Program-made: the position numbers and the translations under genes | Shown: positions 1 through 47,525 of the stretch, in pieces | How positions within the stretch are numbered: position 1 is the first letter of the stretch | Layout of the letters: each line of letters starts with the position of its first letter | The notes under the pieces: generated by a model | The model's database searches: none | What the model saw: the letters and a program-made list of their open reading frames with translations, nothing else | What the model was told of the DNA's origin: nothing | From: Heterodontus francisci | Taxonomy: Eukaryota | Reading direction: 5' to 3' | DNA: 64,000 nt | Assembly (NCBI RefSeq): GCF_036365525.1 | Contig: NC_090378.1 | Coordinates: forward strand, 82,514,357-82,578,356

Positions 1-198
1 CAGATTAAATTTCACCTATTTTGCTTTCTTCTGTACATAAATGAAGTTTTGGAGTATTTTAGTTTGTGTTAAGTTTGACTAGTTCTACTCATTCTCAAGT
101 TGAGAAATCACCTCAGTTGTCCATATCTACAGCAAAATGACATGGGTATGATGTAAATCTTTCCAATATTTCCTTAATTTTGATGCTATTCATTCCAG

Positions 199-398
199 AT
201 GGCTGGGCTTTCAGAAACAATGTGGATATCAAACAACATCAAACATTAAATGATCGTTTCAACGCGGCAAGGCTGTTGCTGAATGAGGAGCCACCCTGTC
301 CAGTGGTAGTGGACACTATGGATAATGCGACTAGTGCCAAATATGCAGCTATGCCAGAGAGACTGTATGTGGTGCATAATGGCAAAATCATTTACAAG
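199..398 (+). CDS. DIO1: Iodothyronine deiodinase type 1, penultimate coding exon
   Basis: ttccag|AT..TACAAG|gtaac; encodes (D)[49 protein letters not shown]. The A(L/M)PERLY motif and multi-exon structure fit DIO1 rather than DIO2/3. The Sec-codon exon is upstream of the window. Confidence 0.95.
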
Positions 399-1538
399 GT
401 AACAGAGTACTTTGATACTCGTGATAATGTCCATTTATTGAATGGTTTCACTACTAGATTTTGAATTGATATTTTCTTTCTCCCCAAGCTTAGGATAATG
501 CATTTGATTTCCAACCCTTGCTTTCCCTGAAGAAGCCAATTCATGCTGGGTTACAATTCCATAGATGTCAGCAGCCCTTTAATAATCCAGTCCAAAGCTG
601 CTGTAATTTGACTACTGTAGAATTGTGCTTCTGGCCTGCTTGTTGTCTTGCTATGCTTTCAGTCTGTTTTCCTCAATCATAATATTCAAAAAAAAAAGAG
701 TAAAAGCAGCAACAGACTCACAACTTTTAACTATTTTTATTATTTACCAAACTCCCATACCCTAAGAAACAAATAACTAGGGGCACAGCCATTCTTTGGA
801 CCTATTGCTTCAATCAAATATTGGTTATTCAGACAAATCCAGGTTAGATTATGATAACCAATGAGAGGAAGATGTACCCAAGGACTGGGATGGTCATGAG
901 CCATGCAGACAAAAGTTGTAGGAATGATTAGAAGATGGGATCGGTAAATTTATAAATATATTTGTGGATTTAATTTTCTGAATTATTGAAGCTTTTAAAT
1001 GTTACATATCTCTCCAAAAATATCATTCCTAGTGTATGTGGAGTTAGGTAGAATTTTGTTTGTGTTTGGAGAGAAAATAGAAATGTGGGGAATATTTTGG
1101 GAATAATGAAAGAAAAGAATAAAGTTGAAAGGAGAAAACATGACATTTAACCAGGGATTAAAAAGAAAATCAGCTCAATAGTCACCACATGGATGACAGA
1201 CTCAGTTCAGAGGTTTTATAAAGCTTTGAATAAAAGCTGGGAGTTTGACCTTCAATCCACATTTAGCAGCATAATCAGCCTAATTAAACTAAAATGTAAA
1301 TGAAACTACTGGCATAGATGACAAAGGAATGCTGGTTCTTAAAGCCTCTCTGAAAAACTAGCTTATACACAATATGTAGCTAAACAATTGTCGTGGTGAG
1401 TGGCATTCCTAAAATTAGCTGTATACACTCAAAATGTTCTATTGGAGCTGACCACAATCACGGAGTATATTGGTAATATGAGCCATAGGTTGTGTTTTTA
1501 CTATTTTTATTTAAGATTTTATCATGAAAGGGAACATT

Positions 1539-2198
1539 GGCTGGAATTTTACACCCCTCAAAAGAGCGGGCTGCTGGCCAGGGTGGGGTAAATGGAGTGG
1601 GAGACTCCAGGAGGGGGGGGGGGGGGGGGGGCATTCCCGACCCGCTCCCGCCTCCTCCACTATTTTATGTGGGGCAGCAGCAAGAAATGGCCAACCTACC
1701 CGTCCTCCGCAACGGGGATTTTACGGTTGGCAGGCAGGCGGGCGGCCTAGGCCTCAGAAAAGCCGCCTGATAAAAGTAGGTGGCCTTCTGGGGGGGCTGC
1801 TCCTGATCGGGCTGCCCCCGATGCTTCTACTGCCCTCAACACCCAACATGCTAGCCACCCTCACAATCGACCTCCCCTTGTCTCACCAGGGCCCGACCGA
1901 TTCCCCACCCCGCCCCGTGAGGCCCCAAAAACTTACCTGTTCTGTGGGGCTCCCTGACATCTTCAGTCTTCAGCTGAGTTGCAGTCCCAGCAGTGGCCGC
2001 TGCTCCCGGTGGCGCTGCTGGGACTAAGAGCTGCCGGCTTGCTGATTGGCCTCAATGAAGTGGAAGTCCTGCCCAAGACCAATTAAGGACCTGTGGACCA
2101 TAAAATCTGGTCTGGATCCCCAGGCCCGGCGGAGACGGGATCACCACCGACTTTTCGGTCCGTGGATGGCTCCCCTCCGACACATGAAAATTCTAGCC
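1539..2198. mobile_element. Non-autonomous DNA transposon / MITE-like element in DIO1 intron
   Basis: GC-rich island in AT-rich intron bounded by inverted termini GGCTGGAATTTT / AAAATTCTAGCC; no transposase ORF. Confidence 0.6.
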
Positions 2199-2460
2199 AT
2201 ATAAGCTTAGAGCCAAAAAACAGGTAGTATTTTATTGTGTTGTATACTGGGGAGTTGTGGATACAGCAGGATAATCACCATCGATACAATGTCATGAATG
2301 AGAAGGTTAGAATAAGGTAGGTATTTGTTCTAGAGGAGGAGAGTACAGTCTCTCAAATTTGTTGTGTCACAGACAAGGCTAGTCAATGAATCATCAATCT
2401 TTGGCAAAGGGATGAAGAAACATCATCCATTTAACTAATAGTTTTCATTTTGTTTTACAG

Positions 2461-2526
2461 GGTGAAAGAGGACCTTGGGGGTATAAACCAGAAGAAGTAC
2501 GATTAGTTTTGCAAAACCCAAGTTAA
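2461..2526 (+). CDS. DIO1: DIO1 terminal coding exon
   Basis: tgttttacag|GGT GAA AGA GGA CCT TGG..TAA = GERGPWGYKPEEVRLVLQNPS*, phase 0 matches previous exon; resembles mammalian GKSGPWNYNPEEVRAVL. Confidence 0.95.
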   Translation, partial: GERGPWGYKPEEVRLVLQNPS

Positions 2527-2607
2527 ACCACTGGTGTAATCTTCAGAGGAAGCTTTCATAGGCACTCATATGAGCACATGAAATACATATAACCAAGTCA
2601 AAGAAGT

Positions 2608-2686
2608 TTTCTTTTCCATATTGATAATGATTTTTTCAGTTTTAAATTAGTAACTGGGATTTGATAATTTGAATATGGAAGAAAAA
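2608..2686 (+). promoter_or_regulatory. Candidate SECIS element (proximal) in DIO1 3' UTR
   Basis: Helix I TTCCATATT(2614-2622)/AATATGGAA(2672-2680), extendable; A-UGAU(2627-2631)/UGAU(2662-2665) quartet; helix II TTTCAGTT/AACTGGGA; AAA at 2644. Spacing (13 nt AUGA-AA, 17 nt AA-GA) is slightly off canonical and helix II is weak. Confidence 0.5.
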
Positions 2687-3899
2687 CAACCTTGTATTTG
2701 GTTAATGCTTATTTTATGTTTTCATACCTATATAAATTGTAATAGGTCACTAAGGTTTAGCCTGTGAAAGCTAGGGCAGTAAATTCCACTTTTGGGTTTG
2801 GGCGGGGGGTGGAGAACAGGGTGCGTGAGAAAAAAATCACGGTACATGAACAATTTACACTCTAAAACATTCAGCACCAACAATACTAAAATAAAACCTG
2901 ACAAAAAAGGCACATTATTCCAAAATGAACAAGATTCATACATTCCTGCAAGTTCCAATGCTAACCTGAAGTACTGTCCTTGTTCTCATTTTTCTGGACA
3001 GATCAATAGTTAAAGTGGGCTGAAATATTCTGGCCTTTGCATAACACAAAATACAATTTGTAACCCCTTGTTGCATTCTCCCTAGTTGGGCTAAGCAAAA
3101 TTATTTAGTTTTTTTTTTAATGCTTATAGAAAACATATGGTTCCATCCTTATGGAATTATTTCACAAACTAACGAGTGAGTCAAAAGATTTGAAAATGGA
3201 GAAATTAAACCCTGATTCTGTGTTCTTGCATTGTTTACAGAATCATGTATTATATCCATAAAAGGATGTGGATATCATATTCCACATTCAGGAAAATTGT
3301 TATACTCCAAGAATCAGTTAATCTCTTTTAATGTTACACCGATAGTGTGAAGTTGTGATTTAGTGTGATCTCTGTAAAGTATTCCTTCAATGTATCATAT
3401 AGCAGTAGTTATACTTAATCAATTTGAGAACTCTGAAGTTTAATCTATATACAGTGAGATTCCTTAATTCATTCAGTTGTTTAAAAATCATTTTTTATGT
3501 AGATGCAGTATTTGATTTTTCAGTCTGCTATTTGAACTATTTTAAATGAATATCTTCATTGAAGCAGTAATGAATCACATGAAACAGAACAGAAATTAGG
3601 CAAAGTGCTGAAAAAGGCTTTTGAACCATATAAAGTACAAAAGTAAAGAAAGCCTCCAAGAAAGCAAAGCATATGAGAGAATCAATTTAAATAAGTAATG
3701 AAAACAGCTTCAGAAAATCAGTGAATTTGACAAATCCTTTGGAATTCAAAAAGCACAATCACAGTTGAAGTTAATACTATCTGGAAAAATAATTGAATGA
3801 TTCTACTTACTTATTTGAATTGATGCAACTTTTTGTTGTCTGATGAGATACAATTGGCGGAATTTAAATTCAATTAATTAGCAAGTTTAACTAATTACA

Positions 3900-4170
3900 A
3901 AATCTGCAATTGAAAGCTAGTCTCAGTAATAGTGCCATGAAATTATCATCAATTTTTGTAAAAACCCATCTAGTTCACTACTCCTTTAGGGAAGGAAATC
4001 TGCTGTCCTTACCTGGTCTGGCCTACATGTGACTCCAGACCCACAGCAATGTGGTTGATTCTTAATTGCCCTCAAATGGCCTAGCAAGCTACTCGGTTGT
4101 CAAGGGCAATTGGGGATGGGCAACAAATGCTGGCCTTGCCAGCAATGCCCACATCCCATGAAAGAATAAA
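3900..4170 (+). mobile_element. SINE 3' portion with CR1-like tail, downstream of DIO1 stop
   Basis: Same family at ~37085-37375, ~63415-63620 and ~63760-64000(-); 3' tail (gggcaattggggatgggcaacaaatgctggcc..cccacatcccatgaaagaataaa) matches the 3' end of the LINE at 27050. Confidence 0.75.
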
Positions 4171-4680
4171 ACAATTCCCAACTAAATTGCTGAAATGCCA
4201 CTACTGTCTGAAAAGGATATTAAAAGGCTTCTAATGTGACCAGGAATTAAACCAGATGAACAAATTAGGAAAGGCAGCTATATTTATCAACATGCCACAG
4301 TTCAGACGGGCTGAGTAATCACCCCCTTAAATTTTCCTTTAGCCACTGAAGTAAAAACTCATATGAAAGTATTGACAGTCTTGCCCTGCAGAAGTGTTGG
4401 CTGCTTTGACTAGCATCAATACTTGTGGAGTAGCCACTGTCTCCAATATCCAACCCTCACTACTGGAAAAGACAGACAGGTATTTGTTAGAGTTTCACAA
4501 TTTTTTTTTTGAAATCCTGAACAGTAAAGTAATGACTCTAGTCAGATCCTGCTTTTCAAATTTGCAACATTAAGAACTGAAAATCGTGTAAGATTTAAAA
4601 GTCGTCATTTTATTCTTTATTTGTCAAGACCTATAATTCAGAGATATAGAATAAGTTCAGTCACTGCAAGTATAATGAAT

Positions 4681-4752
4681 TAGCTATATTGTTTATGAAA
4701 TTTACAGATAAAACCAGAGACAGCTGTGGCATGGTGGTCTGAAATATAGTTA
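4681..4752 (+). promoter_or_regulatory. SECIS-like element (distal), DIO1-type sequence but non-canonical 3' core (UGGU)
   Basis: Helix I TAGCTATATT/AATATAGTTA; GTTTATGA (ATGA 4695-4698), 11 nt, AAAA (4710-4713), ACAGCTGTG, then TGGT (4732-4735) where TGAN is expected. Confidence 0.6.
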
Positions 4753-5063
4753 AGAGCATGTAAATCAGTGGGATGAAGTTTTATATTCCCTATTAAATAA
4801 TTACTATTCAATAACTGTTTTGGATATTTCCATTGTATTCAGTTGAAAAGACTATTTACCCTAAAGGGAACAGAACCTTTTTACTACATTTTATCCCCCA
4901 AATTGTTTTAAATATAAAAACCTATCCAATCTGTGTTGAAAGCTGTAAGCAAAATTGGAATGAATGTTTACAATTCAAAACATTGTGATGCACCATTCAG
5001 ATTTTGATCAAAAATACTTTTGAGTTCCCAATGAAGACTGCGACAGTGTTGCAAAACAAAGAA

Positions 5064-5069
5064 TTTATT
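5064..5069 (-). terminator. Likely polyadenylation signal of IFT25
   Basis: AATAAA on minus strand ~140 nt after the stop codon. Confidence 0.55.
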
Positions 5070-5206
5070 CACAAGAATAACAATTCAATACTTAATGATG
5101 CTTTGTAACATATGGTGCAAAAATATTTACACCAGTAACATTGTACATACAGCCTCAATGTTTCACATTTTCAAGTCTGGTTTTGTAACACTTGTGCTGT
5201 ATAGAC

Positions 5207-5311
5207 TCAATCTGCCTCTGTACCTTCCACTGTCACCTTATGTACTGACACAAAGTGGTCGAAACCAGATTTGATGACAAATCGTAAATGTGTTGCGCTG
5301 GCTCCATCTTG
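5207..5311 (-). CDS. IFT25: IFT25/HSPB11 exon 5 (terminal)
   Basis: tatacag|CAA GAT..GAT TGA = QDGASATHLRFVIKSGFDHFVSVHKVTVEGTEAD*. Confidence 0.93.
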   Translation of the reverse strand, partial: QDGASATHLRFVIKSGFDHFVSVHKVTVEGTEAD

Positions 5312-5371
5312 CTGTATAGAGAACATACTTTGTAATTCACATTCTATTTTGCTTATTAAAAATTACTGCTC

Positions 5372-5720
5372 TCCCAGTAGCTTAGTTGGCAGAGGTGCTG
5401 CCCAGTGCATTATTGAGCCCCACAGGCCAGAAGATTCCAGTTTGATCCCTGTTTTGTGCTCAGTTAGCTAATTACAACCAGTGTAACAGAGGGACAGTAC
5501 AATTGGCTTTGGTGTTTGTTAGGAAAAAGCTGCCAGAGTTCCTGCTCCTGTCCAGTGAATGCTACTAGAAAATACATGCATAGGATAAGAACAGAACAGG
5601 TCTCAGCTTGGACACTGGTCAATTCTGATGTATGAAGAATGTCTACTCAGGTTATACTGGAGGCTGCTCTCACCCAGAAAGATTCCGTCTTTGTGGAGAG
5701 ATGGGGAAAAGTCAAACTCA
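5372..5720 (+). mobile_element. Old tRNA-headed SINE-like repeat (family unassigned)
   Basis: Diverged relatives at ~29405-29510, ~35740-35975(-), ~47360-47530/50511-50560, ~56930-57080(-), ~57340-57620. Confidence 0.5.
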
Positions 5721-6145
5721 AGGTGTGGAATTAATGAAATGGCAGCATTTCTATCACATATAATTTACAAGTCACAACACTATTTTTGCATAAGTAAAAT
5801 CATATCTCAACATTGAAGATGTATATCCTTGTTTTATTTTACTCTCTAACTTAGCTGTAGTGCACCTTGCACTCCCAAAATACTGAATATTACTTTGAAC
5901 TAGCTGTTCAAAGTTAGTAATGTGTACGTGCTACAACATTCCTTGAACTGTCTCCACTTTCCACTGCAGGAAGGTGCTGGCCCTTCACTCAGAACTTGCC
6001 TCAACAGCACTGTAGAGCTCAAGAACTTCAGCAGTATCTGGGAAATCAAACAACAATGGCACTGCTCTCTGGTGAGCTTCCTGCCTATAATCATTTCATA
6101 CAGAGTAAAATATTACCCAAGTTTTTGTGAAAGATATGTACTTAC

Positions 6146-6189
6146 TGTAAATTCTTCTATTTGAAGCTGTTCCTCAGAGCGCTCAAATT
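6146..6189 (-). CDS. IFT25: IFT25/HSPB11 exon 4
   Basis: ctaccag|AA..ACA|gtaagt; (E)FERSEEQLQIEEFT, 44 nt, phases consistent. Confidence 0.9.
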
Positions 6190-6301
6190 CTGGTAGAAAA
6201 GAGAACCACAAGATGAAAACTACCAGATAAATGGGAATAGAGTAGTTGTTTTCCACAGTATCCCTGGTGATTTCATTAAAATATTTATTAAATACACTTA
6301 C

Positions 6302-6370
6302 CACCGTTAGTTAAAGGTTCGAAATCTACAGGATCTCTTGCAACACTTTTCTCAATACTAAGGTTGCGCA
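6302..6370 (-). CDS. IFT25: IFT25/HSPB11 exon 3
   Basis: tttacag|TG..G|gtaagt; (V)RNLSIEKSVARDPVDFEPLTNG, 69 nt. Confidence 0.92.
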
Positions 6371-6528
6371 CTGTAAAAGTGAATCAAGTAGAAACTTAAG
6401 ACTTTTAGAAGATTTGTAATTATTTTAAGTACTTGGTGTCTTGCTGTATTCCAATCAACATTAGCAAGGTAAATATTTACATGTTTACTAATTTGCATTT
6501 ACACTGAAATATATCTAGTAATGCCACC

Positions 6529-6572
6529 CACTCAAAACTGAATATTCACTCAAAACTGAATATTCACTCAAA
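6529..6572 (+). repeat. 18-bp tandem duplication (x2.4)
   Basis: CACTCAAAACTGAATATT repeated. Confidence 0.85.
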
Positions 6573-6732
6573 TGGATGAAGCTGAGGAAAAGTTCATGAG
6601 TAATTAAGGACTTTTTGTTCACTGCATTTCATTCTTTTATACATGTACAGAACTAGGCAAAATAGCCCTTTCATCATAGTAAATCCTTATTCTATTCAAA
6701 TACTGTGATTTAATAAACAGCAAAAATCTTAC

Positions 6733-6839
6733 CATTATAACAATGAATTTTCATCGAGCTAATTTTTATAAGATTAGCAAAACTTAGGATAAATTCTTGT
6801 GGGAACATTCCTGTTGTGATCCAAAATGTTTCTGTATTA
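6733..6839 (-). CDS. IFT25: IFT25/HSPB11 exon 2
   Basis: ttacag|T..G|gtaag; NTETFWITTGMFPQEFILSFANLIKISSMKIHCYN, hallmark FWxTTGMFPQEF. Confidence 0.95.
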
Positions 6840-7315
6840 CTGTAAGCAAAAGTATAAGAAATCTTAAGATAGTTCAGAGAGTTGGCATTTTTGTTCAATT
6901 TTCATCCCTCTTTTCTGATCAATATTGGATTAGTTTCACAGATAGCAGCCACACTTTGGTCCTTGTCGAAGTGGGCATTTTCCATGTCTGAGCCTGGACA
7001 AAAATGACTTGCATTTATATAGCACCTTGAATGTAGTAAAACATTAGTTAGTTAGGAATGGAAAAGGAATTCAAAGTTTCTGCTCCAACTTCTGGTAGCG
7101 ATATGGGAAATTTGAAGTTCTCACTGATTTCAATTATTGCTAGCTCTGGGTGGGGGCCACAACACAGCCTGTGGCAAAGCCCTGAGTGACAGATCGCAAC
7201 TTCTGGATTGCGCTACATCCTAAAGTTGTGGTTAGTTTCAGAGGGGTAAAGACAGGGAACACTAACAGTTTGTTGTCAAACCGCACCCCCCACCCTCAAC
7301 CCTTGCATAATCTGA

Positions 7316-9880
7316 GCAATTATTTCCAAATACCTCCATGGCCTCGTCCCACCCTGTCTCTGTAATCTCCTCCAGCTCCACAATCCTCCAACACTTCTGA
7401 ATTCATCTAATTCCGGTCTTTTGAGCACCCCCAATTTTAATCACTCCACCATTGTGCCTTTTATTGCCTAGGATCTAAACTCCGGAATTCCCTCCTTTAA
7501 GATGCTCCTTAAAATCTACCTGTTTGAAAGCCTTTAGTCACCTGCCTGACTAACTATGTAGCCTGGAGTCAAATGTTGAGAACATAAGAAATAGGAGGAA
7601 GAGTAGGTCATTTGGCCCCTCAAGCCAGCTCCACCATTCAATAAGAACATGGCTGATCTGATTGTGATCTTAACTTTCCTGCCTGCTCCCCATAACCCTT
7701 TACTCCCTTGCTGATCTGAATATGGCCTCAACTCCATGCTCCTTTCTGCCCCCGATAACACTTGTCTATCAAGAATCTATGTAACTCAGCCTTGAATATA
7801 TTAAATGACCCAGCCTCCGCTGCTCTCGGGGGTAGAGAATTTCAAAGATTAACAACCCTGAGAAGAAATTCCTCCTCATCTTCATTTTAAATGGGAGGCC
7901 GCCTACCTCCCATTGAAACTGTGCCTCCTAGTTCTCAGCATCTACCCTGTCAAGCCCCTCAGAATTTTATATGTTACAATAACACCTTTCATTCTTCTAA
8001 ACTCCAAGTATAGGCCCAACCATTCCTCATAAGGCAACCCCTTCATCCCAGAAGTGAACCTCTGAACTGTCTCCAATGCAAGTATATGCCTCCTTAAATA
8101 AGGAGACCAAAACTGTATGCAGTACTCTAGGTGCACTCCTACCAGTGTCCTGTACGGTTGTAGCAAGACTTCCCTGCTTTTATACTCCATCCCCCTTTGC
8201 AATAAAGGCCAACATTCCATTTGCCTTCCTAATTACTTGCTGTACCTGCACGCTAACCTTTTCTGATTCATGTACAAGGACCCCAGATCCCTCTGTCCTG
8301 CAGCATTCTGCAGTCTCTCAATTTAAATAACATTCTGCTTTTCTATTCTTCCCACCAAAGTTGACAACCTCATATTTTCTCACATTATGCTCCATCTGCC
8401 ACATTTTTGCCCACTCACTTTACCTATCTATATCTCTTTGCAGACTCTTTGTGTCCTCCTCACAACTTGCTTCCCTACTTACCTTTGTATCAGCAAATTT
8501 GGCAACAATACACTCAGTCCCGTCATCCAAGTCATTAATATAGGTTGTAAATATCTGAGGCCCCAGTACTGATCCCTGTGGCACTCCACTAGTTAAGGGT
8601 TTTCGGCCTGAAAATGCCCCATTTATTCCAACTCTTTGTTTCCTGTAAGTTAGCTAATCCTCTATCCGTGCTAATATATTACCCCAACACCATGAGCTAT
8701 CGTCTTGTGCAGTAACCTTTTACGTGGCACCTTATCCCAGAGTTGTTACAGTGCAGAAGGTGGCCATGTTCATGCCAGCTCTCCGAAAGAGCAATTCACT
8801 TAGCGCCATTATCCTGCCTTCTCCCTGTAACCCTGCACATTCTTCCTTCTCATGTAACAGTCTAATTCCCTTTTGAATGCTTCAATTGAAGCCGCCTCCA
8901 CCACACTCTCGGGCACTACATTCCAGACCTTAACCGCAGTGGTTAGCACCGCAGCCTCACAGCTCCAGCGACCTGGGTTCAATTCTGGGTACTGCCTGTG
9001 TGGAGTCTGCAAGTTCTCCCTGTGTCTGTGTGGGTTTTCTCCGGGTGCTCCGGTTTCCTCCCACAAGCCAAAAGACTTGCAGGTTGTTAAGTAAATTGGC
9101 CATTATAAATTGCCCCTAGTATAGGTAGGTGATGGGAAATATAGGGACAGGTGGGGATGTGGTAGGAATATGGGATTAGTGTAGGATTAGTATAAAATGG
9201 GTGGTTGATGGTCGGCACAGACTCGGTGGGCCGAAGGGCCTGTTTCAGTGCTGTATCTCTAAACTAAACTAATCACTGCGTGAAAAAGTTTATCATGTCA
9301 CTTTTGCTTCTCTTGCCAATTACTTTAAATCTGTGTCCTCTCGTTCTTGATCCTTTCACAAGTGGGAACAGTTTCTCCCTATCTGCTCTGTCCAGACCCT
9401 TCATGATTTTGAATACCTCTATCAAAACCCCTCTCTGCCTTCTCTTCAAGGAAAACAGTCCTAACTTCTCCAATCAATCTTCATAACTTAAGTATCAAAT
9501 GCCTTTTGGAAATCCAAATACCCCACTGGTATCCCTTTATCCAGCCTGTTTGTTACATCCTCAAAGAACTCTAATAAATTTGTCAAATACAATTTTCCTT
9601 TCATAAAACTATGTTGACTCTGTCTGATTGCATTAAGATTTTCTCAATGTCCTGCTATGACTTCCTTAATAATGGATTCCAGCATTTTCCCAGTGACATT
9701 TGTTAGGCTAATTGGTGTAACGTTTCCTGTCTCTGTCTCCGTCCTTTCTTGAATAGAGGTGTTACATTTGTTTTTTTTCCAATCCGATGAGAACTTTCCA
9801 GAATCTTGTTTTATAATGCTCCTGGGAAGCGCCTGGGGACTTTTACAATGTTAAAGCGCTATTTACATGCAAGTTGTTAT
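7316..9880. mobile_element. Nested LINE cluster: L2-like 3' end (+) interrupted by CR1 (-, ~7581-9805), itself interrupted by a second CR1 3' end (~8738-9490)
   Basis: CR1 RT C-terminal peptides (LEYCIQFWSPYL; KLGLFSL..RGVLIEVFKIMKG..RTRGH); host sequences resume across each junction. Confidence 0.8.
8936..9272 (+). mobile_element. HE1-type V-SINE
   Basis: tRNA-like A/B boxes (gcagtggttagc..gggttcaattc), V-domain (ccgggtgctccggtttcctcccac), CR1-like tail, (TAAAC)n end. Confidence 0.88.
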
Positions 9881-10049
9881 CTGGAGGTTGTTTGACAGGC
9901 CACAGGCTAAGGTGAGGGAAGCCATCACCCGGTTCATAAGACTGACACCCTGGATACAGCCTGCGCCCCAGACCCGGGGCGACTGCTCTTGCCGGACACC
10001 CAGCCTGCAGGTAACCGCACCGGCGACAGAGACAGGCCCGGCTCCTCAC

Positions 10050-10144
10050 CCGTCAATGATATTCTCCGGCGGATGTTTCTCATCCACAGACGCCGCCAAC
10101 ACAACCTGTGTTCCCGCAACCGTCAATCCAAAATCCCGCTTCAT
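10050..10144 (-). CDS. IFT25: IFT25/HSPB11 exon 1 (start codon)
   Basis: gccgacATG..GAC GG|gtgagg; MKRDFGLTVAGTQVVLAASVDEKHPPENIIDG; joined CDS is 420 nt = 139 aa + stop. Confidence 0.95.
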
Positions 10145-10357
10145 GTCGGCCTCTTCGTTACCACAACAAGAAGTCTTTTCCAGTCCTCCAATAACCCTTC
10201 CCCTGTGTCCGATTTACACTTCCGGTCCTTTCCATAACCTTCCCCCGTGTGTCCGGTTTATGGTTCCGGTTTCATGAACTGCCGGAGGCAGGAGCGTTGG
10301 TAATTCATGAGGAATCCTTGTGGCTTTCCGGCCGGTGGTAGTTGGCAGCTGGTGAAG
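10145..10357. promoter_or_regulatory. Bidirectional CpG-rich promoter of IFT25 and LRRC42, including probable non-coding LRRC42 exon 1
   Basis: CpG-rich; ETS/GABP site ACTTCCGG (10218-10225) plus TTCCGG at 10264 and 10326; X-box-like GTTACCACAACAAG (10157-10170); strong + strand donor AAG|gtaagt at 10357/10358. Confidence 0.7.
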
Positions 10358-10544
10358 GTAAGTGTTGAACTTAGGTTGGCGACTGTGGAGAGATTAAAGA
10401 GGAGAGAATGGACTCTCATTCAGCTACGCCCCCTCCCAGCCCTGGGGCCTCCTTATAAAGATGTGATACGGAGCCACTAGTGAGAGCTGGTCGAGTCTAC
10501 TGTGGAGGAGTCTTAACTCTGTATTTATCCAGTGCATTGCTCAG

Positions 10545-11140
10545 CTGATGAAAGGTTAACTCTATTTCTCTCCACAGATGCTGTTTGACCTACTGAGTGT
10601 TTCCAGCATTTTCTGATTTTGTTTCAGAGTTACAGCATTTGCAGTATTTTGCTTTTGGTTTGCTCGACTAATTGTTTTATGGGCCCATGCCAAAGTCTCT
10701 TGCCTTGTCACTGACTCTATCCTTCTCCCTGCTCCTCCCTTAGACTGAAACAGACTGTATACAATCTTGCCATCCTGCTCAATCTGAAGCTGAGCTTCAA
10801 ACTCTATAGGCCATCCATCACTAAGACCACTTATTTCTACCCTCATATTGTTGTCTACTTCCGCAACTGCTAAAATAAAAGCAAAATACTGCAGATGCTG
10901 GAAATCTGAAATAAAAACAAAAAATGCTGGCAATACTCAGCAGGTCTGGCAGCTTCTGTGGAGAGAAAGCAGAGTTAACGTTTCAGGTCAGTGACCTTTC
11001 ATCAGAACTAGCAAACGTTAGAAATGTAATAGGTTTTAAGCAAATAAAGCGGAGGTGGGCAAAAGATAACACAAGGGAAGGTGTTGATAGGACAGAGGGT
11101 CACTGAGAATAACTGACCAGAAGGTCATGTCTTTCACCGC
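10545..11140. mobile_element. Penelope-like element terminal fragments (two, opposite orientation)
   Basis: ~10545-10660 and ~10870-11140 match the 35152-35384 sequence; minus-strand CTGATGA..GAAACGTT hammerhead-like core at 10974-11005. Confidence 0.65.
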
Positions 11141-11159
11141 ACCATTGAAAGACAAAGCG

Positions 11160-11494
11160 TTAGTTTAGTTTAGAGATACAGCACTGAAACAGGCCCTTTG
11201 GCCCACCGAGACTGTGCCGACCATCAACCACCCATTTATACTAATCCTACACTAATTCCATATTCCTACCACATCCCCACCTGTCCCTATATTTCCCTAC
11301 CACCTACCTATACTAGGGGCAATTTATAATGACCAATTTACCTATCAACCAGCAAGTCTTTGGCATGTGGGAGGAAACTGGAGCACCCGGAGGAAGCCCA
11401 CACAGTCACAGGGAGAACATGCAAACTCCACACAGCCAGCACCCAGGATTGAACCCGGGTCGCTGGAGCTGTGAGGCTGCGGTGCTAGCCACTG
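11160..11494 (-). mobile_element. HE1-type V-SINE
   Basis: Reverse complement of the 8936 element; its head abuts the G-rich tract. Confidence 0.88.
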
Positions 11495-14400
11495 TGAGGG
11501 GGTTGGGGTAAGAGGGGGGAAGAGGGGTTGGGGTAAGAGGGGGGAAGAGGGGTTGGGGTAAGAGGGGGGAAGAGGGGTTGGTGGTAAGAGGGGGTGGGGT
11601 GAGGGGGGTAAGAGGGGGTGGGGTGAGGGGGGTAAGAGGGGGTGGGGTGAGGGGGGTAAGAGGGGTGGGGTGAGGGGGGTAAGAGGGGGTGGGGTGAGGG
11701 GGAAGAGGGGTTGGGGTAAGAGGGGGTAAGAGGGGTTGGTGGTAAGAGGGGGTAAGAGGGGTTGGTGGTAAGAGGGGGTGGGGTGAGGGGGGTAAGAGGG
11801 GGTGGGGTGAGGGGGGTAAGAGGGGGTGGGGTGAGGGGGGTAAGAGGGGGTGGGGTGAGGGGGGTAAGAGGTGGTGGGTGGGGTGAGGGGGGTAAGAGGT
11901 GGTGGGTGGGGTGAGGGGGGGAAGAGTGGGTGAGGGGGGGAAGAGTGGGTGAGGGGGGAAGAGTGGGTGAGGGGGGGGAAGAGTGGGTGGGGGGGGTGAG
12001 GGGGGGGAAGAGTGGGTGGGGGGGGTGAGGGGGGGGAAGAGTGGGTGGGGGGGGTGAGGGGGGGGAAGAGTGGGTGGGGGGGGTGAGGGGGGGAAGAGTG
12101 GGTGGGGGGGGTGAGGGGGGGAAGAGTGGGTGGGGGGGGGGTGAGGGGGGAAGAGTGGGTGGGGGGGGTGGGGGGGGGGTGAGGGGGGAAGAGTGGGTGG
12201 GGGGGTGAGGGGGGGGAAGGGGGGGTGAGGGGGGGGAAGAGGGGGTGAGGGGGAAGAGGGGGTGGGGGGAAGAGTGGGAAGAGGGGGTGAGGGGGAAGAG
12301 GGGGTGGGGGGAAGAGTGGGTGAGGGGGGGAAGAGGGGGTGGGGGGGGTGAGGGGGGGAAGAGGGGGTGGGGTGGGGGGGGAAGAGGGGGTGGGGTGGGG
12401 GGGAAGAGGGGGTGGGGTGGGGGGGAAGAGGGGGTGAGGGGGGGGGAAGAGGGGGTGGGGGGGTGAGGGGGGGGAAGAGGGGGTGGGGTGGGGGGGGTGA
12501 AGAGGGGGTGAGGGGGGGGGAAGAGGGGGTGGGGTGGGGGGGGTGAGGGGGGGAAGAGGGGGTGGGTGGGGTGAGGGGGGGGAAGAGGGGGGGGAAGAGG
12601 GGGGGGGTGAGGGGGGTAAGAGGGGGTGGGGTGAAGGGGGGGAAGAGTGGGTAAGAGGGGGTGGGGTGAAGGGGGGGAAGAGTGGGTGGGGTGGGGTGAG
12701 GGGGGAAAGCGGGGGTGGGGGGAAAGCGGGGGTGGGGGGAAAGCGGGGGTGGGGTGAGGGGGGAAAGCGGGGGTGGGGTGAGGGGGGGAAGAGGGGGTGG
12801 GTGGGGTGAGGGGGGGAAGAGGGAGGAAGAGGGGGTGGGTGGGGTGAGGGGGGAAGAGGGGGTGGGTGGGGTGAGGGGGGGAAGAGGGGGTGGGTGGGGT
12901 GAGGGGGGGGAAGAGGGGGTGGGTGGGGTGAGGGGGGGGAAGAGGGGGTGGGTGGGGTGAGGGGGGGGAAGAGGGGGTGGGTGGGGTGAGGGGGGGGAAG
13001 AGGGGGTGGGTGGGGTGAGGGGGGGGAAGAGGGGGTGGGTGGGGTGAGGGGGGGGAAGAGGGGGTGGGTGAGGGGGGGAAGAGGGGGTGGGTGAGGGGGG
13101 GAAGAGGGGGTGGGTGAGGGGGGGAAGAGGGGGTGGGTGAGGGGGGAAGAGGGGGTGGGTGTGGGGGGGGAAGAGGGGGTGGGTGAGGGGGGGAAGAGGG
13201 GGTGGGTGAGGGGGGTAAGAGGGGGTGGGTGAGGGGGGTAAGAGGGGGTGGGGTGAGGGGGGGAAGGGTGGGGTAAGAGGGGGTGGGGTGAGGGGGGAAG
13301 GGTGGGGTAAGGGGTGGGGTGAGGGGGGGAAGGGTGGGGTAAGAGGGGGTGGGGTGAGGGGGGGAAGGGTGGGGTGAGGGGGGAAGAGGGTGAGGGGGGA
13401 AGAGGGTGAGGGGTGGGGTGAGGGGGGAAGTGGGGGTGGGGTGAGGGGGGAAGAGGGGGTGGGGTGAGGGGGGAAGAGGGGGTGGGGTGAGGGGGGAAGA
13501 GTGGGGAAAGCGGGGGTGGGGTGAGGGGGAAAGCGGGGGTGGGGTGAGGGGGGGAAGACGGGGGTGGGGTGGTAAGATGGGGTGGGGTGAGGGGGGGTGG
13601 GGTGAGGGGGGGTGGGGTGGGAAATAGGGGGTGGGGTGAGGGGGGGGAAGAGGGGGTGAGGGGGGGAAGAGGGGGGGAAGAGGGGGAGGGGGGGAAGAGG
13701 GGGAGGGGGGAAGAGGGGGGGAAGAGGGGGGGAAGAGGGGGTGGGGGGGAAGAGGGGGGGAAGAGGGGGTGGGTGGTGTGAGGGGGGGAAGAGGGGGTGG
13801 GTGGGGGTGAGGGGGGGAAGAGGGGGTGAGGGGGGGAAGAGGGGGTGAGGGGGGGAAGAGGGGGTGGGTGGGTGGGGGAAGAGGGGGGTGGGTGGGGTGG
13901 GGAAGAGGGGGTGGGTGGGGTGAGGGGGGGAAGAGGGGGTGAGGGGGGAAGAGGGGGTGGGGGGTGAGGGGGGTAAGAGGGGGTGGGGGGGTAAGAGGGG
14001 GTGGGGTGAGGGGGGAAGAGTGGGGAAGAGGGGGTGGGGTGAGGGGGGAAGAGTGGGGAAGAGGGTGAGGGGTGTGGGGGGAAGAGGGTGAGGGGTGAGG
14101 GGGGGAAGAGGGTGAGGGGGGGAAGAGGGGGTGGGGTGAGGGGGGAGAGGGGGTGGGGGTGAGGGGGAAGAGGGGATGGGGTGAGGGGGGGAAGTGGGGG
14201 AAAGCGGGGGTGGGGTGAGGGGGGAAAGCGGGGGTGGGGTGAGGGGGGGAAGACGGGGTGGGGTGGTAAGATGGGGTGGGGTGAGGGGGGGTGGGGTGGG
14301 AAAGAGGGGGTGGGGTGAGGGGGGAAGAGGGGGTGAGGGGGGTAAGAGGGGGTGGGGGGGTGAGGGGGGTAAGAGGGGGTGGGGGGGAAGAGGGGGTGGG

Positions 14401-17400
14401 TGGGGTGAGGGGGGGAAGTGGGGGTGAGGGGGGGAAGAGGGGGGTGGGGGGGTGAGGGGGGTAAGAGGGGGTGGGGGGGGTATGAGGGGGGTGGGGTGAG
14501 GGGGGGAAGAGTGGGGAAGAGTGGGGAAGAGGGGGTGGGGTGAGGGGGGAAGAGTGGGGGAAGAGGGGGTGGGGTGAGGGGGGAAGAGTGGGGAAGAGGG
14601 GGTGGGGTGAGGGGGGAAGAGTGGGGAAGAGGGGGTGGGGTGAGGGGGGAGAGTGGGGAGAGGGGGTGGGGGTGAGGGGGGGAGAGTGGGGTGGGGAAGA
14701 GGGGGTGGGGTGAGTGGGGAAGAGGGGGTGGGGTGAGGGGGGAAGAGGGGGTGGGGAAGAGGGGGTGGGGTGAGTGGGGAAGAGGGGGTGGGGTGAGGGG
14801 GGAAGAGGGGGTGGGGTGAGGGGGGAAGAGTGGGGAAGTGGGGTGAGGGGGGGAAGAGGGGGTGGGGTGAGGGGGGAAGAGGGGGTGGGGTGAGGGGGGA
14901 AGAGTGGGGAAAGCGGGGGGTGGGGTGAGGGGGGGAAGACGGGGTGGGGTGAGGGGGGTAAGAGGGGGTGGGGTGGGGGGGTAAGAGGGGGTGGGGTGGG
15001 GGGGGTAAGATGGGGTGGGGTGGGTGGGGTGAGGGGGTGGAGGGGTAAGTGGGGGTGGGGTGAGGGGGGGTAAGAGGGGGTGGGGTGAGGGGGGGAAGAG
15101 GGGGGGAAGAGTGGGGAAGAGGGGGTGGGGGGGAGAGTGGGGAAGAGGGGGTGGGGTGAGGGGGGAAGAGGGGGTGGGGTGTGGGGGGGGAAGAGGGGGT
15201 GGGGTGAGGGGGGGAAGAGGGGGTGGGGTGTGGGGGGGAAGAGTGGGGAGAGGGTGAGGGGGGAAGAGGGGGTGGGGTGAGTGGGGAGGGGGGAAGAGTG
15301 GGGAAGAGGGGTTGGGGTGAGGGGGGAAGAGTGGGGGAAGAGGGGGTGTGGTGGGGGGGAAGAGGGGGGTGTGGTGGGGGGGAAGAGGGGGTGTGGTGGG
15401 GGGGGGAAGAGGGGGTGTGGTGGGGTGAGGGGGGGTAAGAGGGGGTGGGGGGTAAGAGGGGGTGGGGTGAGGGGGTAAGAGGGTGAGGGGTGAGGGGGTA
15501 AGAGGGGGGGTGGCGGGGGGGAGAGGGGGAGGGGTGGGGGAAGAGGGGGGGAAGAGGGGGGGTGGGGTGGGGGGGGGAAGAGGGGGTGGGGTGGGGGGGG
15601 AAGAGTGGGGGAAGAGGGGGTGGGGTGGGGGGGGAAGAGGGGGTGGGGTGGGGGGGGGAAGAGTGGGGGAAGAGGGGGTGGGGTGGGGGGGGAAGAGTGG
15701 GGGAAGAGGGGGTGGGGTGGGGGGGAAGAGTGGGGAAAGAGGGGGTGGGGTGGGGTGGGGGGGGAAGAGGGGGTGGGGTGGGGGGGGAAGAGTGGGGAAG
15801 CGGGGGTGGGGTGAGGGGGGGAAGAGGGGGTGGGGTGGGGGGGAAGAGGGGATGGGGTGGGGGGGGAAGAGTGGGGAAAGCGGGGGTGGGGTGAGGGGGG
15901 TAAGAGGGTGAGGGGTGAGGGGTGAGGGGGTAAGAGGGGGGGGTGGCGGGGGGGAAGAGGGGGAGGGGGAGGGGTGGGGGAAGAGGGGGTGAAGAGGGGT
16001 GGGGGAAGAGGGGGTGGGGTGGGGGGGGGAAGAGGGGGGGAAGAGGGGGGGAAGAGGGGGTGGGGTGGGGGGGGAAGAGTGGGGGAAGAGGGGGTGGGGT
16101 GGGGGGGGAAGAGTGGGGAAAGAGGGGGTGGGGTGGGGTGGGGGGGAAAGAGGGGGTGGGGTGGGAGGGGGAAGAGTGGGGAAAGCGGGGGTGGGGTGAG
16201 GGGGGGAAAGAGGGGGTGGGGTGGGGGGGAAGAGGGGTGGGGAAGAGGGGGTGGGGTGGGGGGGGAAGAGTGGGGGAAAGCGGGGGGTGGGGTGAGGGGG
16301 GTAAGAGGGGGTGGGGTGGGGGGGTAAGGTGAGGTGAGGGTGGGTGGGGTGGGGGGGTAAGATGGGGTGGGGTGAGGGGGGGAAGAGGAGGTGGGGTGAG
16401 GGGGGGAAGAGGAGGTGGGGGGGGAAGAGGGGGTGGGGGGGAAGAGGGGGTGGGGTGAGGGGGGGAAGAGGGGGTGGGGTGAGGGGGGGAAGAGGGGGTG
16501 GGGTGAGGGGGGGAAGAGGGGGTGGGGTGGGGTGAGGGGGGAAGAGGGGGTGGGGAGAGGGGTGAGAGGGGGTGGGGTGGGGTGAGGGGGGGAAGAGGGG
16601 AGGGGGTGGGGTGAGGGTGGGGAGAGGGGAGGAGGTGGGGTGAGGGTGGTAAGAGGGCGTGGGGTGAGGGGGGGAAGAGGGGGTGGGGTGAGGGGGGGGA
16701 AGAGTGGGGAAGAGGGTGAGGGGGGAAGAGGGGGAAGAGGGGGGTGGGGTGAGTGGGGAAGAGGGGGTGGGGTGAGGGGGGAAGAGGGGTTGGGGTGAGG
16801 GGGGAAGAGTGGGGGGAAGAGGGGGAAGAGTGGGGGGAAGAGGGGGTGTGGTGGGGGGGAAGAGGGGGTGTGGTGGGGGGGAAGAGGGGGTAAGAGGGGG
16901 GTGGGGGGGTAAGAGGGGGTGGGGTGAGGGGGTAAGAGGGTGAGGGGTGGGGTGAGGGGGTAAGAGGGGGGGTGGCGGGGGGGAAGAGGGGGAGGGGTGG
17001 GGGAAGAGGGGGGGAAGAGGGGGTGGGGTGGGGGGGAAGAGGGGGTGGGGTGGGGGGGGAAGAGTGGGGGAAGAGGGGGTGGGGTGGGGGGGGAAGAGTG
17101 GGGGAAGAGGGGGTGGGGTGGGGGGGGAAGAGTGGGGAAGAGGGGGTGGGGTGGGGGGGAAGAGGGGGTGGGGTGGGGGGGAAGAGTGGGAAAGAGGGGG
17201 TGGGGTGGGGTGGGGGGGGAAGAGGGGGTGGGGTGGGGGGGGAAGAGTGGGGAAAGCGGGGGTGGGGTGAGGGGGGGGAAAGAGGGGGTGGGGTGGGGGG
17301 GAGAGGGGGTGGGGTGGGGGGGGAAGAGTGGGGAAAGCGGGGGTGGGGTGTGAGGGGGGTAAGAGGGTGAGGGTGAGGGGGTAAGAGGGGGGGTGGCGGG

Positions 17401-20400
17401 GGGGAAGAGGGGGAGGGGGAGGGGTGGGGGAAGAGGGGGTGAAGAGGGGTGGGGGAAGAGGGGGTGGGGTGGGGGGGGAAGAGTGGGGGAAGAGGGGGTG
17501 GGGTGGGGGGGAAGAGTGGGGGAAGAGGGGGTGGGGTGGGAGGGAAGAGGGGGTGGGGTGGGGGGGGAAGAGTGGGGAAAGAGGGGGTGGGGTGGGGTGG
17601 GGGGGAAAGAGGGGGTGGGGTGGGGGGGGGAAGAGTGGGAAAGCGGGGGTGGGGGTGTGAGGGGGGGAAAGAGGGGGTGGGGTGGGGGGGAAGAGGGGTG
17701 GGGGAAGAGGGGGTGGGGTGGGGGGGGAAGAGTGGGGAAAGCGGGGATGGGGTGAGGGGGGGTAAGAGGGGGTGGGGTGGGGGGGTAAGGTGAGGTGAGG
17801 GTGGGTGGGGTGGGGGGGTAAGATGGGGTGGGGTGAGGGGGGGAAGAGGAGGTGGGGTGAGGGGGGAAGAGGAGGTGGGGGGGAAGAGGGGGTGGGGTGA
17901 GGGGGGGAAGAGGGGGTGGGGTGAGGGGGGGAAGAGGGGGTGGGGTGAGGGGGGGAAGAGGGGGTGGGGTGGGGTGAGGGGGGAAGAGGGGGTGGGGTGA
18001 GGGGGTGAAGAGGGGGTGGGGTGGGGTGAGGGGGGGAAGAGGGGAGGGGGGTGGGGTGAGGGTGGGAAGAGGGGAGGAGGTGGGGTGAGGGTGGTAAGAG
18101 GGCGTGGGGTGAGGGGGGGAAGAGGGGGTGGGGTGAGGGGGTAAGTGGGGGAGGGGGGTAAGAGGGGGTGGGGTGAGGGGGGGAAGAGGGGGTGGGGGGG
18201 TGAGTGGGGGGGAAAGAGGGGGTGGGGGGGTGAGAGGGGGGAAAGAGGAGGTGGGGGGTGTGAGGGGGGCAGAGGGGGTGGGGGGTGAGTGGGGGGGGGT
18301 GGTGGGGGCGGTAAGAGGGGGTGTGGTGGGGGGGGGGGAAGAGGTTGTGGTGGGGAAGAGGTGGTGAGGGTGGGGTGGGTAAGAGGGCGGGGGGGGAAGA
18401 GGGTGAGGGGGGAAGTGGGGGTGGGGCGAGGGGGAAAGAGGGGGTGGGGGGGTGAGTGGGGGGGAAAGAGGGGGTGGGGGGTGAGTGGGGGGAAAGAGGG
18501 GGTGGGGGGGTGAGTGGGGGGGAAAGAGGGGGTGGGGGGGTGAGAGGGGGGAAAGAGGAGGTGGGGGGTGAGTGAGGGGGGCAGAGGGGGTGGGGGGGTG
18601 AGTGGGGGGGGTGGTGGGGGCGGTAAGAGGGGGTGTGGTGGGGGGGGGGGAAGAGGTTGTGGTGGGGAAGAGGTGGTGAGGGTGGGGTGGGTAAGAGGGC
18701 GGCGGGGAAGAGGGTGAGGGGGGAAGTGGGGGTGGAGGGGAAGTGGGGGGTGGAGGGGAAGAGGGGGTGGTGTGAGGGGAAGAGGGAGTGGGGGGAAGAG
18801 GGGGTGAGGGGGGTGGGGGAAGAGGGAGTGGGGGGAAGAGGGAGTGGGGGGAAGAGGGGGTGGGGAAGAGGGGGTGAGGGGTGAGGGAGGGGTGAGGGGG
18901 TGGGGGAAGAGGGGGGGTTGGGGAAAGAGGGGGTGGGGGGTGGAGGGAGGGGGTGGGGGGAGAGGGGAGAGGGGAAGAGGGGGGGGTGTGGGGAGGGGAG
19001 GTGTGGGGAGGGGAGGGGTGGGGTGGGTGTGGGGAAAGGTGGGGTGGAGTGAGGGGGTGTGGGGAAAGGGGGGGGAGGGGGGAAGAAGGGGGTGGGGTGA
19101 TGGCGGAAGAGGGGGTGGGGTGAAATGAGGGGGAAGAGGGGGTGGGGTGAGGGGGAAGAGGGGGTGGGGTGAGGGGGTGAGGGGGGAAGAGGGGGTGAGG
19201 TGAGGAGGGAAGATGGGGTGGGGTGAGGGGGGAAGACGGGTGTGGGGGTAAGATGGGGTGGGGTGAGGAGGGAAGACGGGTGTGGGGGGAAGATGGGGTG
19301 GGGTGTGGGGGGAAGATGGGGTGGGGTGTGGGGGGAAGATGGGGTGGGGTGTGGGGGGAAGATGGGTGGGGTGTGGGGGGAAGACGGTGTGGGGTGAGGA
19401 GGGAAGACGGTGTGGGGTGAGGAGGGAAGACGGTGTGGGGTGAGAGGGGGAAGATGGGTGGGGTGAGGGAGAAGAGGGTGAGAGGGGGAAGAGGGGTGGG
19501 GTGAGAGGGGGAAGAGGGGTGGGGTGAGGGAGAAGAGGGTGAGAGGGGAAGAGGGGTTGGGGTGAGGGGGAAGAGGGGTTGGGGTGAGGGGGAAAGAGGG
19601 GTGCGGGCGAAAGAGGGGGTAATGGAGAAGAGGGTTGAGGGGGGAGAGGGTGATGGGGGAAGAGGGTTGAGGGGAAAGATGGGTATGGGGGAAGAGGCGG
19701 TGTGGGGGGGGAAGAGGCGGTGTGGGGGGGAAGAGGCGGTGTGGGGGGGAAGAGGGGGTGTGGTGTGAAGAGGGGGGAAGGGGGTGTGGTGTGAAGAGGG
19801 GGGAAGGGGTGTGGGGTGAGGCGGGAAGAGGTAGAGGGGTGAGGGGGAAGAGGGGTGAGGGGAGGGGAAAAGAGGGGTGAGGGGAGGGGCGAAGGGGTAA
19901 AGGGGGGTGAAAGGGTAGGGATGGGGAGGGGTGAAGGGGGAAATGGGGGGATGGGGTGAGGGGGAACGGGGTGGGGCGGCAGGGGGTGAGGAAGGATGTG
20001 ATGGGAAAGAGGGTTGAAGGGAAGAGGGGGGAAGGGGAAAGAGGGGTGGGGGAAGGGGAAAGAGGGTTGGGGGAGGGGGGAAGGGGAAAGAGGGGTGGGG
20101 GATGGGGAAGGGGAGTGGGGGTGAGGGGGAAAGGATGAGGGGAGAAGGGGGTGATGGGTTGAGGGGGGGCAAGGGGGTGAGGAAGGGCGAGGGGGGACAG
20201 GGTGAGGAAGGGGTAAGGGGGACGGGGGGATGGCGAGAGGGGGGAAGGGGGGATGGCGAGAGGGAGGGGGAGGAAAGCGGGGGAGGTGAAGAGGGGGGAT
20301 GGGGATGAGGGGGATGAGGGGGAAGAGGGGGGAGGGGAAGAGTTGGGGGTGAGCAAGGGAGAAGGGGTGAGGTGGAGGGGGGATGGGGAAGGAGATGGCG

Positions 20401-26443: not shown

Positions 26444-27049
26444 GTAAGTTTATAGGCATTCCAAATAACTGGTTGACTTTCTGCAGTGACATAGATTTAA
26501 AAAAGGTTTTCAGTGCAAAATAGAGATAATATTGGATGTGTACAGCAAAAAATGTGTTAATGTTTTAGGTGGGACCCTCTGCTGACAGTAGTCTTTCTTT
26601 CCCTTTAAGATGCTGGCTGGCCTGTTGTACATTTCCAATGTTACCATCTTTTTCTATCTTTAGATTTTGTGATTATCTGTAGATAAGTATTAACAACAGT
26701 ATGTTCAGTATTTGTGCTGGCAAAATGTTCCTTACTTTAATTCTCATTATACCATAACAGGCTGCACACATTTTGTAACGACTGTACTTGCATCTTGATG
26801 CCCTTATGTTATAGATTAGAGTCAGTCCTTGACAGTTTCTTAAAATGTAAATAGTTTTAAAGTATATCAATGTGTAAATTCTACTGGAATTAAAACAACT
26901 TGTGATGCCATAATTGAAATTTTGTTACCCCTACATTTTGGGAGCAATAAATAGCTTAATTCTGACTTCACCACATCACTATTCAATCAAGTGCTGAACT
27001 ACATAAAGCACTGTACAAGTGTCAGAAAGAAAGAACTTTCATTATTTTT

Positions 27050-47168: not shown

Positions 47169-47525
47169 CTGAAAAATAAATATTTTGAGTTTGAACAGGG
47201 TTTTCTCTTTCAACCTCTTTTCCTGCACTCTAAACACGCGCAATCTCCTTTTGTATTTAATAATTTGCATCAAAAAAAGTACCAAAAACTGTCTAGCAAA
47301 ACAAAGGCTAACTGTGGAACTAAGTTACACAAACAAAAAAATTATCCCTAGTTTAATGTCCATCTACGCTAACTTCGCTGATGTCAGACAAAGCTATAAT
47401 TGATCTCAGCAGGACTAGATAGGAAGAGGGGAAAAATTAGGTGCTTCTTGGTTCTGGTCACTCCCCTTTCACTGCTGCTGGAGGTGCATGTGGAAGTTGG
47501 GTGAAGGTGGGATTGGACTAGTTTG

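Follow-up and report, generated by a model that had tools for sequence, protein, structure and literature searches.

The 3′ UTR of the type I iodothyronine deiodinase gene (DIO1) of the shark Heterodontus francisci carries two SECIS-like hairpins, a proximal one with an intact core and a distal one in which a G (G4734) stands in place of the invariant adenine of the 3′ core. We consider it probable that an old SECIS duplication lies behind the pair, and that the near copy recodes the UGA codon and the far copy is disabled. The duplication would have given the shark DIO1 3′ UTR two SECIS-shaped hairpins, and both would have been held under structural selection for a long time, because the changes in the helices preserve pairing whereas similarity can no longer be detected in the flanks. 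Possession of a duplicate would then have freed the far copy to lose its core adenine, before the two organisms whose contigs cover it (organisms A and B, below) split. With its tandem G.A/A.G core retained, the near copy would be the likely binding site of SBP2 and the likely cause of recoding at the Sec UGA; the far copy, with G at the core adenine, would likely be disabled or much weakened. A sequence-only reading of the same DNA, which overlooked the proximal hairpin, had left it undecided whether the distal one is decaying, works as a noncanonical variant, or is unneeded since DIO1 uses another SECIS or has Cys for Sec. The canonical-core sister favors the use of another SECIS among these options.

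Two SECIS-like hairpins downstream of DIO1

The window, by which we mean the whole stretch of 64,000 nucleotides analyzed, starts inside the DIO1 gene on the + strand (Table 1). Judged by its coding sequence, the gene that hosts both hairpins is DIO1. The translation of the exon at 199-398 has its best match in basking-shark type I deiodinase (92% identity), and both DIO1 exons within the window have open frames and intact splice sites. The Sec codon belongs to the exon before 199-398, which lies beyond the window edge; tblastn across the 64-kb window found no further deiodinase exon and no second DIO copy. Between the two hairpins, the 3′ UTR also holds a SINE-like repeat (3952-4175, + strand), with relatives of 74 to 90% identity at 63761-63973, 27044-27122, 37224-37375, 52833-52888, and 59163-59213. 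Elsewhere, positions 11586 to 21880 are occupied by a purine-rich G/A satellite of about 10 kb, with many periods that overlap and a GC skew close to 0.99, which could be a real tract prone to G-quadruplex or triplex formation or partly a long-read artifact. A stop-free frame of 979 residues at 47522-50458 (+) resembles, by eye, a LINE endonuclease/reverse-transcriptase ORF, and shorter reverse transcriptase-like frames lie on the − strand at 27109-28165, 59344-60006, and 60885-62620.

Table 1. Features of the DIO1 region, in window positions
Feature	Position	Strand	Details
DIO1 penultimate coding exon	199..398	+	AG...GT bounded; 66 residues; Pfam PF00837 match
DIO1 last coding exon, coding part	2461..2526	+	stop UAA 2524-2526
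Proximal SECIS-like hairpin, intact core	2612..2682	+	helix I 2612-2622/2672-2682, helix II 2634-2641/2652-2659, AUGA 2627-2630, AAA 2644-2646, UGAU 2662-2665
AAUAAA, candidate end of a short mRNA with the proximal element alone	2890..2895	+	sequence scan
Distal SECIS-like hairpin	4680..4753	+	helix I 4680-4690/4743-4753, helix II 4702-4707/4724-4729, AUGA 4695-4698, AAAA 4710-4713, UGGU 4732-4735
G replacing the invariant adenine of the 3′ core (1n of the kink turn, by our mapping)	4734	+	organism A contig; no change listed there in organism B
GUCUG in the 3′ internal loop, predicted partner CAGAU 4705-4709	4737..4741	+	RNAfold
AUUAAA, candidate polyadenylation signal 3′ of the distal element	4792..4797	+	another at 5355

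The proximal hairpin lies 100 nt 3′ of the DIO1 stop and came from a scan for canonical cores. Its core is UGAU/UGAU (A-UGAU at 2627-2631), helix I has 11 bp, helix II has 8 bp above two U.U pairs, and the AAA sits in a 10-nt loop. The 64-kb window holds 30 candidates with a canonical core, counting both strands, and this one had the best energy score, which was matched or beaten in 3 of 1,000 dinucleotide shuffles and 2 of 1,000 block shuffles of the UTR. With short flanks, the predicted fold is the one drawn here, and the pairs of helices I and II have probabilities of 0.86 to 1.0. The core fits the published consensus UGAN/KGAW (PMC3753652), and helix I, helix II, and the apical adenines also agree with what is expected of a SECIS. 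The element lies at least 88 codons 3′ of the active-site exon, farther than the minimal UGA-to-SECIS distance given as 51 to 111 nt (PMC3316567).

Despite this intact core, the proximal element makes a weak-looking SECIS when judged by search models. It matches the loose SECISearch pattern and fails the strict, default, and loose+ patterns, all as re-implemented here; the loose pattern has 36 matches in 128 kb (both strands), and one more of them is in the DIO1 UTR at 3546. The Rfam SECIS family gave no match to the element at E values up to 10, with either 2590-2710 or 2612-2683 as the query. There are 13 nt from GA to AA, and the element has neither a G at position 1 nor a U at position −4, two features described as over-represented in SECIS elements (PMC2647825). 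A perfect 18-nt tandem repeat at 6529-6572 (2.4 copies) produces spurious loose matches at 6538 and 6556.

The distal hairpin lies 2168 nt 3′ of the DIO1 stop on the sense strand. Helix I comprises 10 bp (4681-4690/4743-4752), to which U4680-A4753 adds an 11th pair. It is followed by GUUUAUGA at 4691-4698, an 11-nt spacer at 4699-4709, AAAA at 4710-4713, ACAGCUGUG at 4720-4728, and UGGU at 4732-4735, so that 21 nt separate the AA at 4710-4711 from G4733. The internal loops read GUUUA and GGUCUGA, and an R precedes the UGA. Helix II as drawn has six consecutive pairs plus one, with AAAA 11 nt after AUGA, and its base is mismatched (A4700.A4731 and U4701.C4730). The sequence-only reading had described helix I, the spacer, the AAAA, and the spacing to UGGU in just these positions, and its central claim, that a SECIS-shaped hairpin has lost its 3′ GA (UGGU for UGAU), is borne out by a direct reading of the core. 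The mismatches that it saw at the base of helix II are likewise present; they are no sign of decay, however, because the intact proximal copy is mismatched at the same two positions. The hairpin may also resemble the rodent DIO1 SECIS, of which the sequence-only reading took it to be a putative ortholog.

With UGAA/UGGU the distal core departs from UGAN/KGAW and its tandem G.A/A.G pairs, and the element falls to the SECISearch3 filter "no GA-GA in core"; with GG permitted, only the loose ones among the re-implemented SECISearch patterns match it. Its place in the 3′ UTR on the sense strand, its helix I, its internal loop, and the R before UGA are those of a SECIS. No match to the Rfam SECIS family appeared at E values up to 10 on 1-12000, 4600-4850, or 4681-4752. 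A GG-core hairpin of equal score arose in 3 of 1,000 dinucleotide and 5 of 1,000 block shuffles of the UTR, and one with any one-letter change of the 3′ GA in 9 of 300 UTR shuffles, by a score designed after the distal element had been seen. Compared with shuffles, the hairpin is not unusually stable (z of −0.67 and −0.89). By the core test the distal hairpin is outside the SECIS family, yet in its build it appears SECIS-derived.

The two hairpins, about 2070 nt apart, likely share a common origin by an old duplication, as judged from their alignment and pairing. They align in register with 28 of 47 positions identical when AUGA and the 3′ dinucleotide are masked, which is the top value among 189 candidates chosen by spacing only (the runner-up has 19). 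The 5′ arm alone is identical at 17 of 27 positions, a level that 1 of 572 other AUGA sites attains, as do 0.11% of 20,140 AT-rich frames. The proximal element had been chosen by core and energy before it was compared with the distal copy. Helix I keeps all 11 pairs in each copy; three of these pairs differ between the copies on both sides and one differs on a single side. Helix II keeps all six pairs at positions 7 to 12 in each, with one double and one single change. This covariation is seen between the proximal and distal copies alone, two sequences for which the pairs were read off the fold predicted for each. Both 5′ loops have 5 nt, and directly above the quartet each copy has two mismatches. 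The sheared pairs themselves differ solely in A2664 of the proximal copy versus G4734 of the distal one.

Searches that ignore the register do not pick up the relationship. The proximal site has a global score of 43, a slim margin over the 40 of the next non-overlapping AUGA site, and unanchored nhmmer with the distal element did not return the proximal one at E values up to 10. The AUGA site at 4675, which had the top anchored score, was dropped as it overlaps the distal query itself. There is no sign of a larger duplication around the hairpins (the best local score of 40 was reached by 89 of 200 shuffles), and similarity between their flanks is undetectable. We infer that this dissimilarity fits an old duplication in which the hairpins alone were kept.

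Support for G4734 and its expected effect

Contigs from 4 of 24 listed sequencing runs were compared with positions 4600 to 4860. The runs are taken for RNA by guess, and none of the listed holders is recorded as RNA. A 1169-nt contig of organism A (run X1, depth 266), which is of the same species as the assembly, has 0 differences over 4600-4860. This short-read contig, rather than raw reads, provides the confirmation of G4734 that the sequence-only reading had called for, and the run possibly represents the assembly's own sample or individual. In organism B, which comes from a separate study (run X9), a contig over 4610-4860 has five substitutions and 17 gap letters. Its listed changes are one at 4754 and the loss of letters at 4638 and at 4658, the alignment also breaks near 4610, and none of these falls inside 4681-4752; position 4734 is covered at a depth of 119 and lies more than 120 letters from both ends of the piece. 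By the listing rule, the four unlisted substitutions should fall near the piece ends. Because no change is listed there, organism B presumably has the same sequence throughout 4681-4752 and thus the same G4734. An assembly slip does not account for G4734.

The stasis of the distal element in organism B against about eight events in the flanks would fit continued selection, which is suggestive only: the chance of finding 0 of 72 nt changed, given 5 to 8 events in the stretch, is not significant (P of 0.08 to 0.16). For organisms C and D, 62% and 86% of the runs were read, respectively, so that the absence of a contig with the element is uninformative there. In organism D (run X18), an ortholog-like piece matches 4757-4825 (+) and is preceded by 26 unlike letters where the 3′ arm of the distal element belongs, and there may have been an insertion at the element or a loss of it. 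The contigs of organisms A and B both start near the 3′ end of the SINE-like repeat at 3952-4175. A 35-nt piece of run X16 at 4768-4802 looks like a chance match.

What would G4734 do to the core? A G at kink-turn position 1n carries an N1-H and so is unable to accept a hydrogen bond from the L1 O2′, and for this reason the kink recognized by SBP2 should not form with G there. That the base replaced by G4734 corresponds to the kink-turn A1n is our own mapping onto the published nomenclature (PMC5061560). The same source describes the bond from L1 O2′ to A1n N1 as essential for kink-turn folding and reports that an A1nC change disabled a riboswitch kink turn; the substitutions it presents as tolerated are mostly at the 2b.2n pair rather than at 1n, and tertiary or protein contacts can fold impaired kink turns. 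For SBP2, a stable helix II is described as a requirement in addition to the tandem pairs (PMC2761289, PMC1874613). The GA/GA core is said to be kept in all vertebrate SECIS elements that were examined (PMC3316567), UGA/GA has been called invariable with one exception, GGA/GA in Toxoplasma and Neospora (PMC2647825), and SECISearch3 drops candidates without a GA/GA core (PMC3753652).

The predicted fold suggests a second defect in the distal copy, namely the rival pairing of 4737-4741, and this misfolding prediction is soft, as RNAfold has no term for kink turns or proteins. Helix I has pair probabilities of 0.65 to 0.98 and the rival upper fold 0.71 to 0.92, and the SECIS-type helix II has a pair probability of about 0; the fold that contains it is less stable by 3.4 kcal/mol than the rival fold, in which G4734 is predicted to complete a 4-bp ACCA/UGGU helix. 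With A modeled at 4734, helix II still reaches only 0.01 to 0.05, and the gap is 2.7 kcal/mol.

Alternatives to a disabled far copy

Does the distal element work nonetheless as a noncanonical GA/GG SECIS, alone or with the proximal one, with SBP2 and the hairpin forcing the kink? Helix I, AUGA, the 11-nt spacer, the apical As, and a U at −4 are all present, contigs guessed to be RNA span the element (depths of 266 and 119), and its 72 nt are without a listed change in organism B against about eight flank events. Moreover, impaired kink turns can be folded through tertiary or protein contacts (PMC5061560), and the GGA/GA core is an exception on record (PMC2647825). However, the conservation signal is not significant, the tolerance of kink turns is mostly for 2b.2n, whereas G4734 is at 1n (PMC5061560), the vertebrate SECIS elements examined all keep GA/GA (PMC3316567), the predicted rival pairing abolishes helix II, and the canonical sister makes distal activity unnecessary. 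From these comparisons we regard a working GG core as unlikely. It is quite unlikely that a GA/GG core unchanged in at least two species still recruits SBP2 and that the choice of poly(A) site tunes the amount of selenoenzyme. The distal copy might also be past recoding and kept for another job, such as mRNA stability, 3′ end choice, or acting as a decoy for SECIS-loop proteins. The probabilities of helix I and of the rival upper fold, the ACCA/UGGU helix completed by G4734, the lack of a listed change in organism B, and the poly(A)-like signal 40 nt 3′ of the element are in line with this, but the rival fold is without covariation support, the overall stability is no better than that of shuffles, and the stasis in organism B is within chance; we find such a role distinctly unlikely.

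A DIO1 with Cys for Sec, or a decaying DIO1, would need neither hairpin. In favor of this, the window does not include the active-site exon, and neither hairpin scores well on published patterns; against this, the two exons in view have open frames and undamaged splice sites, and the closest relatives behave as expected for UGA at the Sec site. One protein with 86% identity over the exon (P0004) and a member of its cluster (P0015) read FGSCS-W-PPF there, and two further relatives end exactly at FGSCS, as UGA would give. All four shark-named proteins that were examined (P0003, P0005, P0010, and P0057) are without the active-site segment, and Cys is thus shown by 0 of 4; the motif could be located in 25 proteins, of which a single one, a rabbit entry, has C at the Sec site. 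Section 7 of a paper that places DIO1 in all vertebrate lineages except cyclostomes makes no mention of a conversion to Cys (PMC13134290). These comparisons indirectly favor Sec in the shark DIO1, and a Cys-containing or decaying gene seems improbable. The annotated DIO1 isoforms of three sharks (P0003, P0010, and P0057) skip the whole Sec-bearing exon in frame, either as a real Sec-less splice form or as an effect of the UGA on annotation.

The two remaining alternatives concern the core itself. If the GA had been displaced, UGAA at 4740-4743, 8 nt farther on, would be the true 3′ core and would pair with the same AUGA; UGAA fits KGAW, and 4725-4742 resembles an imperfect 8-nt repeat. In this register, however, helix II has four consecutive pairs, the 3′ loop has no bases, the fold as drawn comes to +1.2 kcal/mol, and none of the published patterns matches. 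The alignment of the two copies sets G4734 opposite the core A2664, and UGAA 4740-4743 has its counterpart in the 3′ loop and helix I of the proximal element, which makes a displaced core very improbable. Finally, G4734 could have come from a mistake in sequencing or assembly, or it could be a private allele, given that run X1 possibly comes from the assembled individual and that contigs, not raw reads, were compared. The contig from run X1 has 0 differences, and organism B, from a separate study, has no listed change at a depth of 119; this reading is already largely refuted and scarcely credible.

On its best reading, an old duplication with a recoding near copy and a disabled far copy, the shark DIO1 3′ UTR would, if this is true, let one see how a SECIS was duplicated and one copy lost in a single-selenocysteine gene, DIO1 having one Sec. 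The sister hairpins have their helices in common and are set apart by a single core base, and they would form a natural pair for testing the 1n adenine in Sec recoding. For annotation, Rfam misses both elements and the intact copy is found by the loose pattern only, so that DIO1 could be called SECIS-less. If the GG copy were active, the rule of GA/GA invariance in vertebrates would fall, and filters that enforce GA/GA would miss real elements.

Comparison with known SECIS elements and kink turns

Our literature search, in which subscription papers were outside its reach, found no description of shark DIO1 SECIS elements, no DIO1 SECIS sequence in readable form from any species, and no SECIS pair with one copy short of the 1n adenine. 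When metagenome contigs were scanned by pattern for a copy from a vertebrate, the one match lay in a bacterial-type ORF and was rejected as chance, and blastn against plasmids gave only chance matches of 26 to 31 nt. Tilapia DIO1 cDNA is reportedly endowed with two putative SECIS elements, and the presence of two such elements in a fish deiodinase may already be known. SELENOP is usually called unique in having two SECIS elements, yet the zebrafish deiodinase DI.5, of unspecified paralog, is also listed with two (PMC3753652, supplement S3). Both zebrafish elements are found by the default pattern, which demands a 3′ GA, whereas the shark distal element has GG.

SECIS elements of DI1 are described as type I in all species except zebrafish (PMC2647825). 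With eukaryotic type I SECIS (RF00031) both shark hairpins share the site in the 3′ UTR, helix I, the internal loop, AUGA, the apical adenines, and helix II, which in the distal one can be drawn but is predicted not to form; the proximal one has the full UGAN/KGAW core, and the distal one has GG for the 3′ GA. Unlike that family, the shark copies carry two mismatches above the quartet and have no Rfam SECIS match.

SELENOP is the closest parallel in arrangement. Its SECIS 1 and 2 lie in one 3′ UTR and are thought to be duplicated, and use of an intervening poly(A) site can leave the mRNA without the second (PMC5133445). The shark DIO1 also has two SECIS-like elements in one 3′ UTR, and AAUAAA at 2890 could act alike. 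However, the UGAs of SELENOP are many and both of its elements work, whereas the shark DIO1 pair has one broken core; the SELENOP elements are about 334 nt apart (PMC3316567), compared with about 2070 nt for the shark copies.

At the level of the core, SelT of Toxoplasma and Neospora likewise departs naturally from the "invariant" sequence (PMC2647825). In its GGA/GA core it is the U preceding the 5′ GA that has changed, with both sheared pairs kept, whereas the shark distal element loses a sheared-pair adenine. In nonstandard kink turns such as Kt-23, substitution of a G.A pair is mostly at 2b.2n (PMC5061560), whereas the change in the shark distal element would be at 1n.
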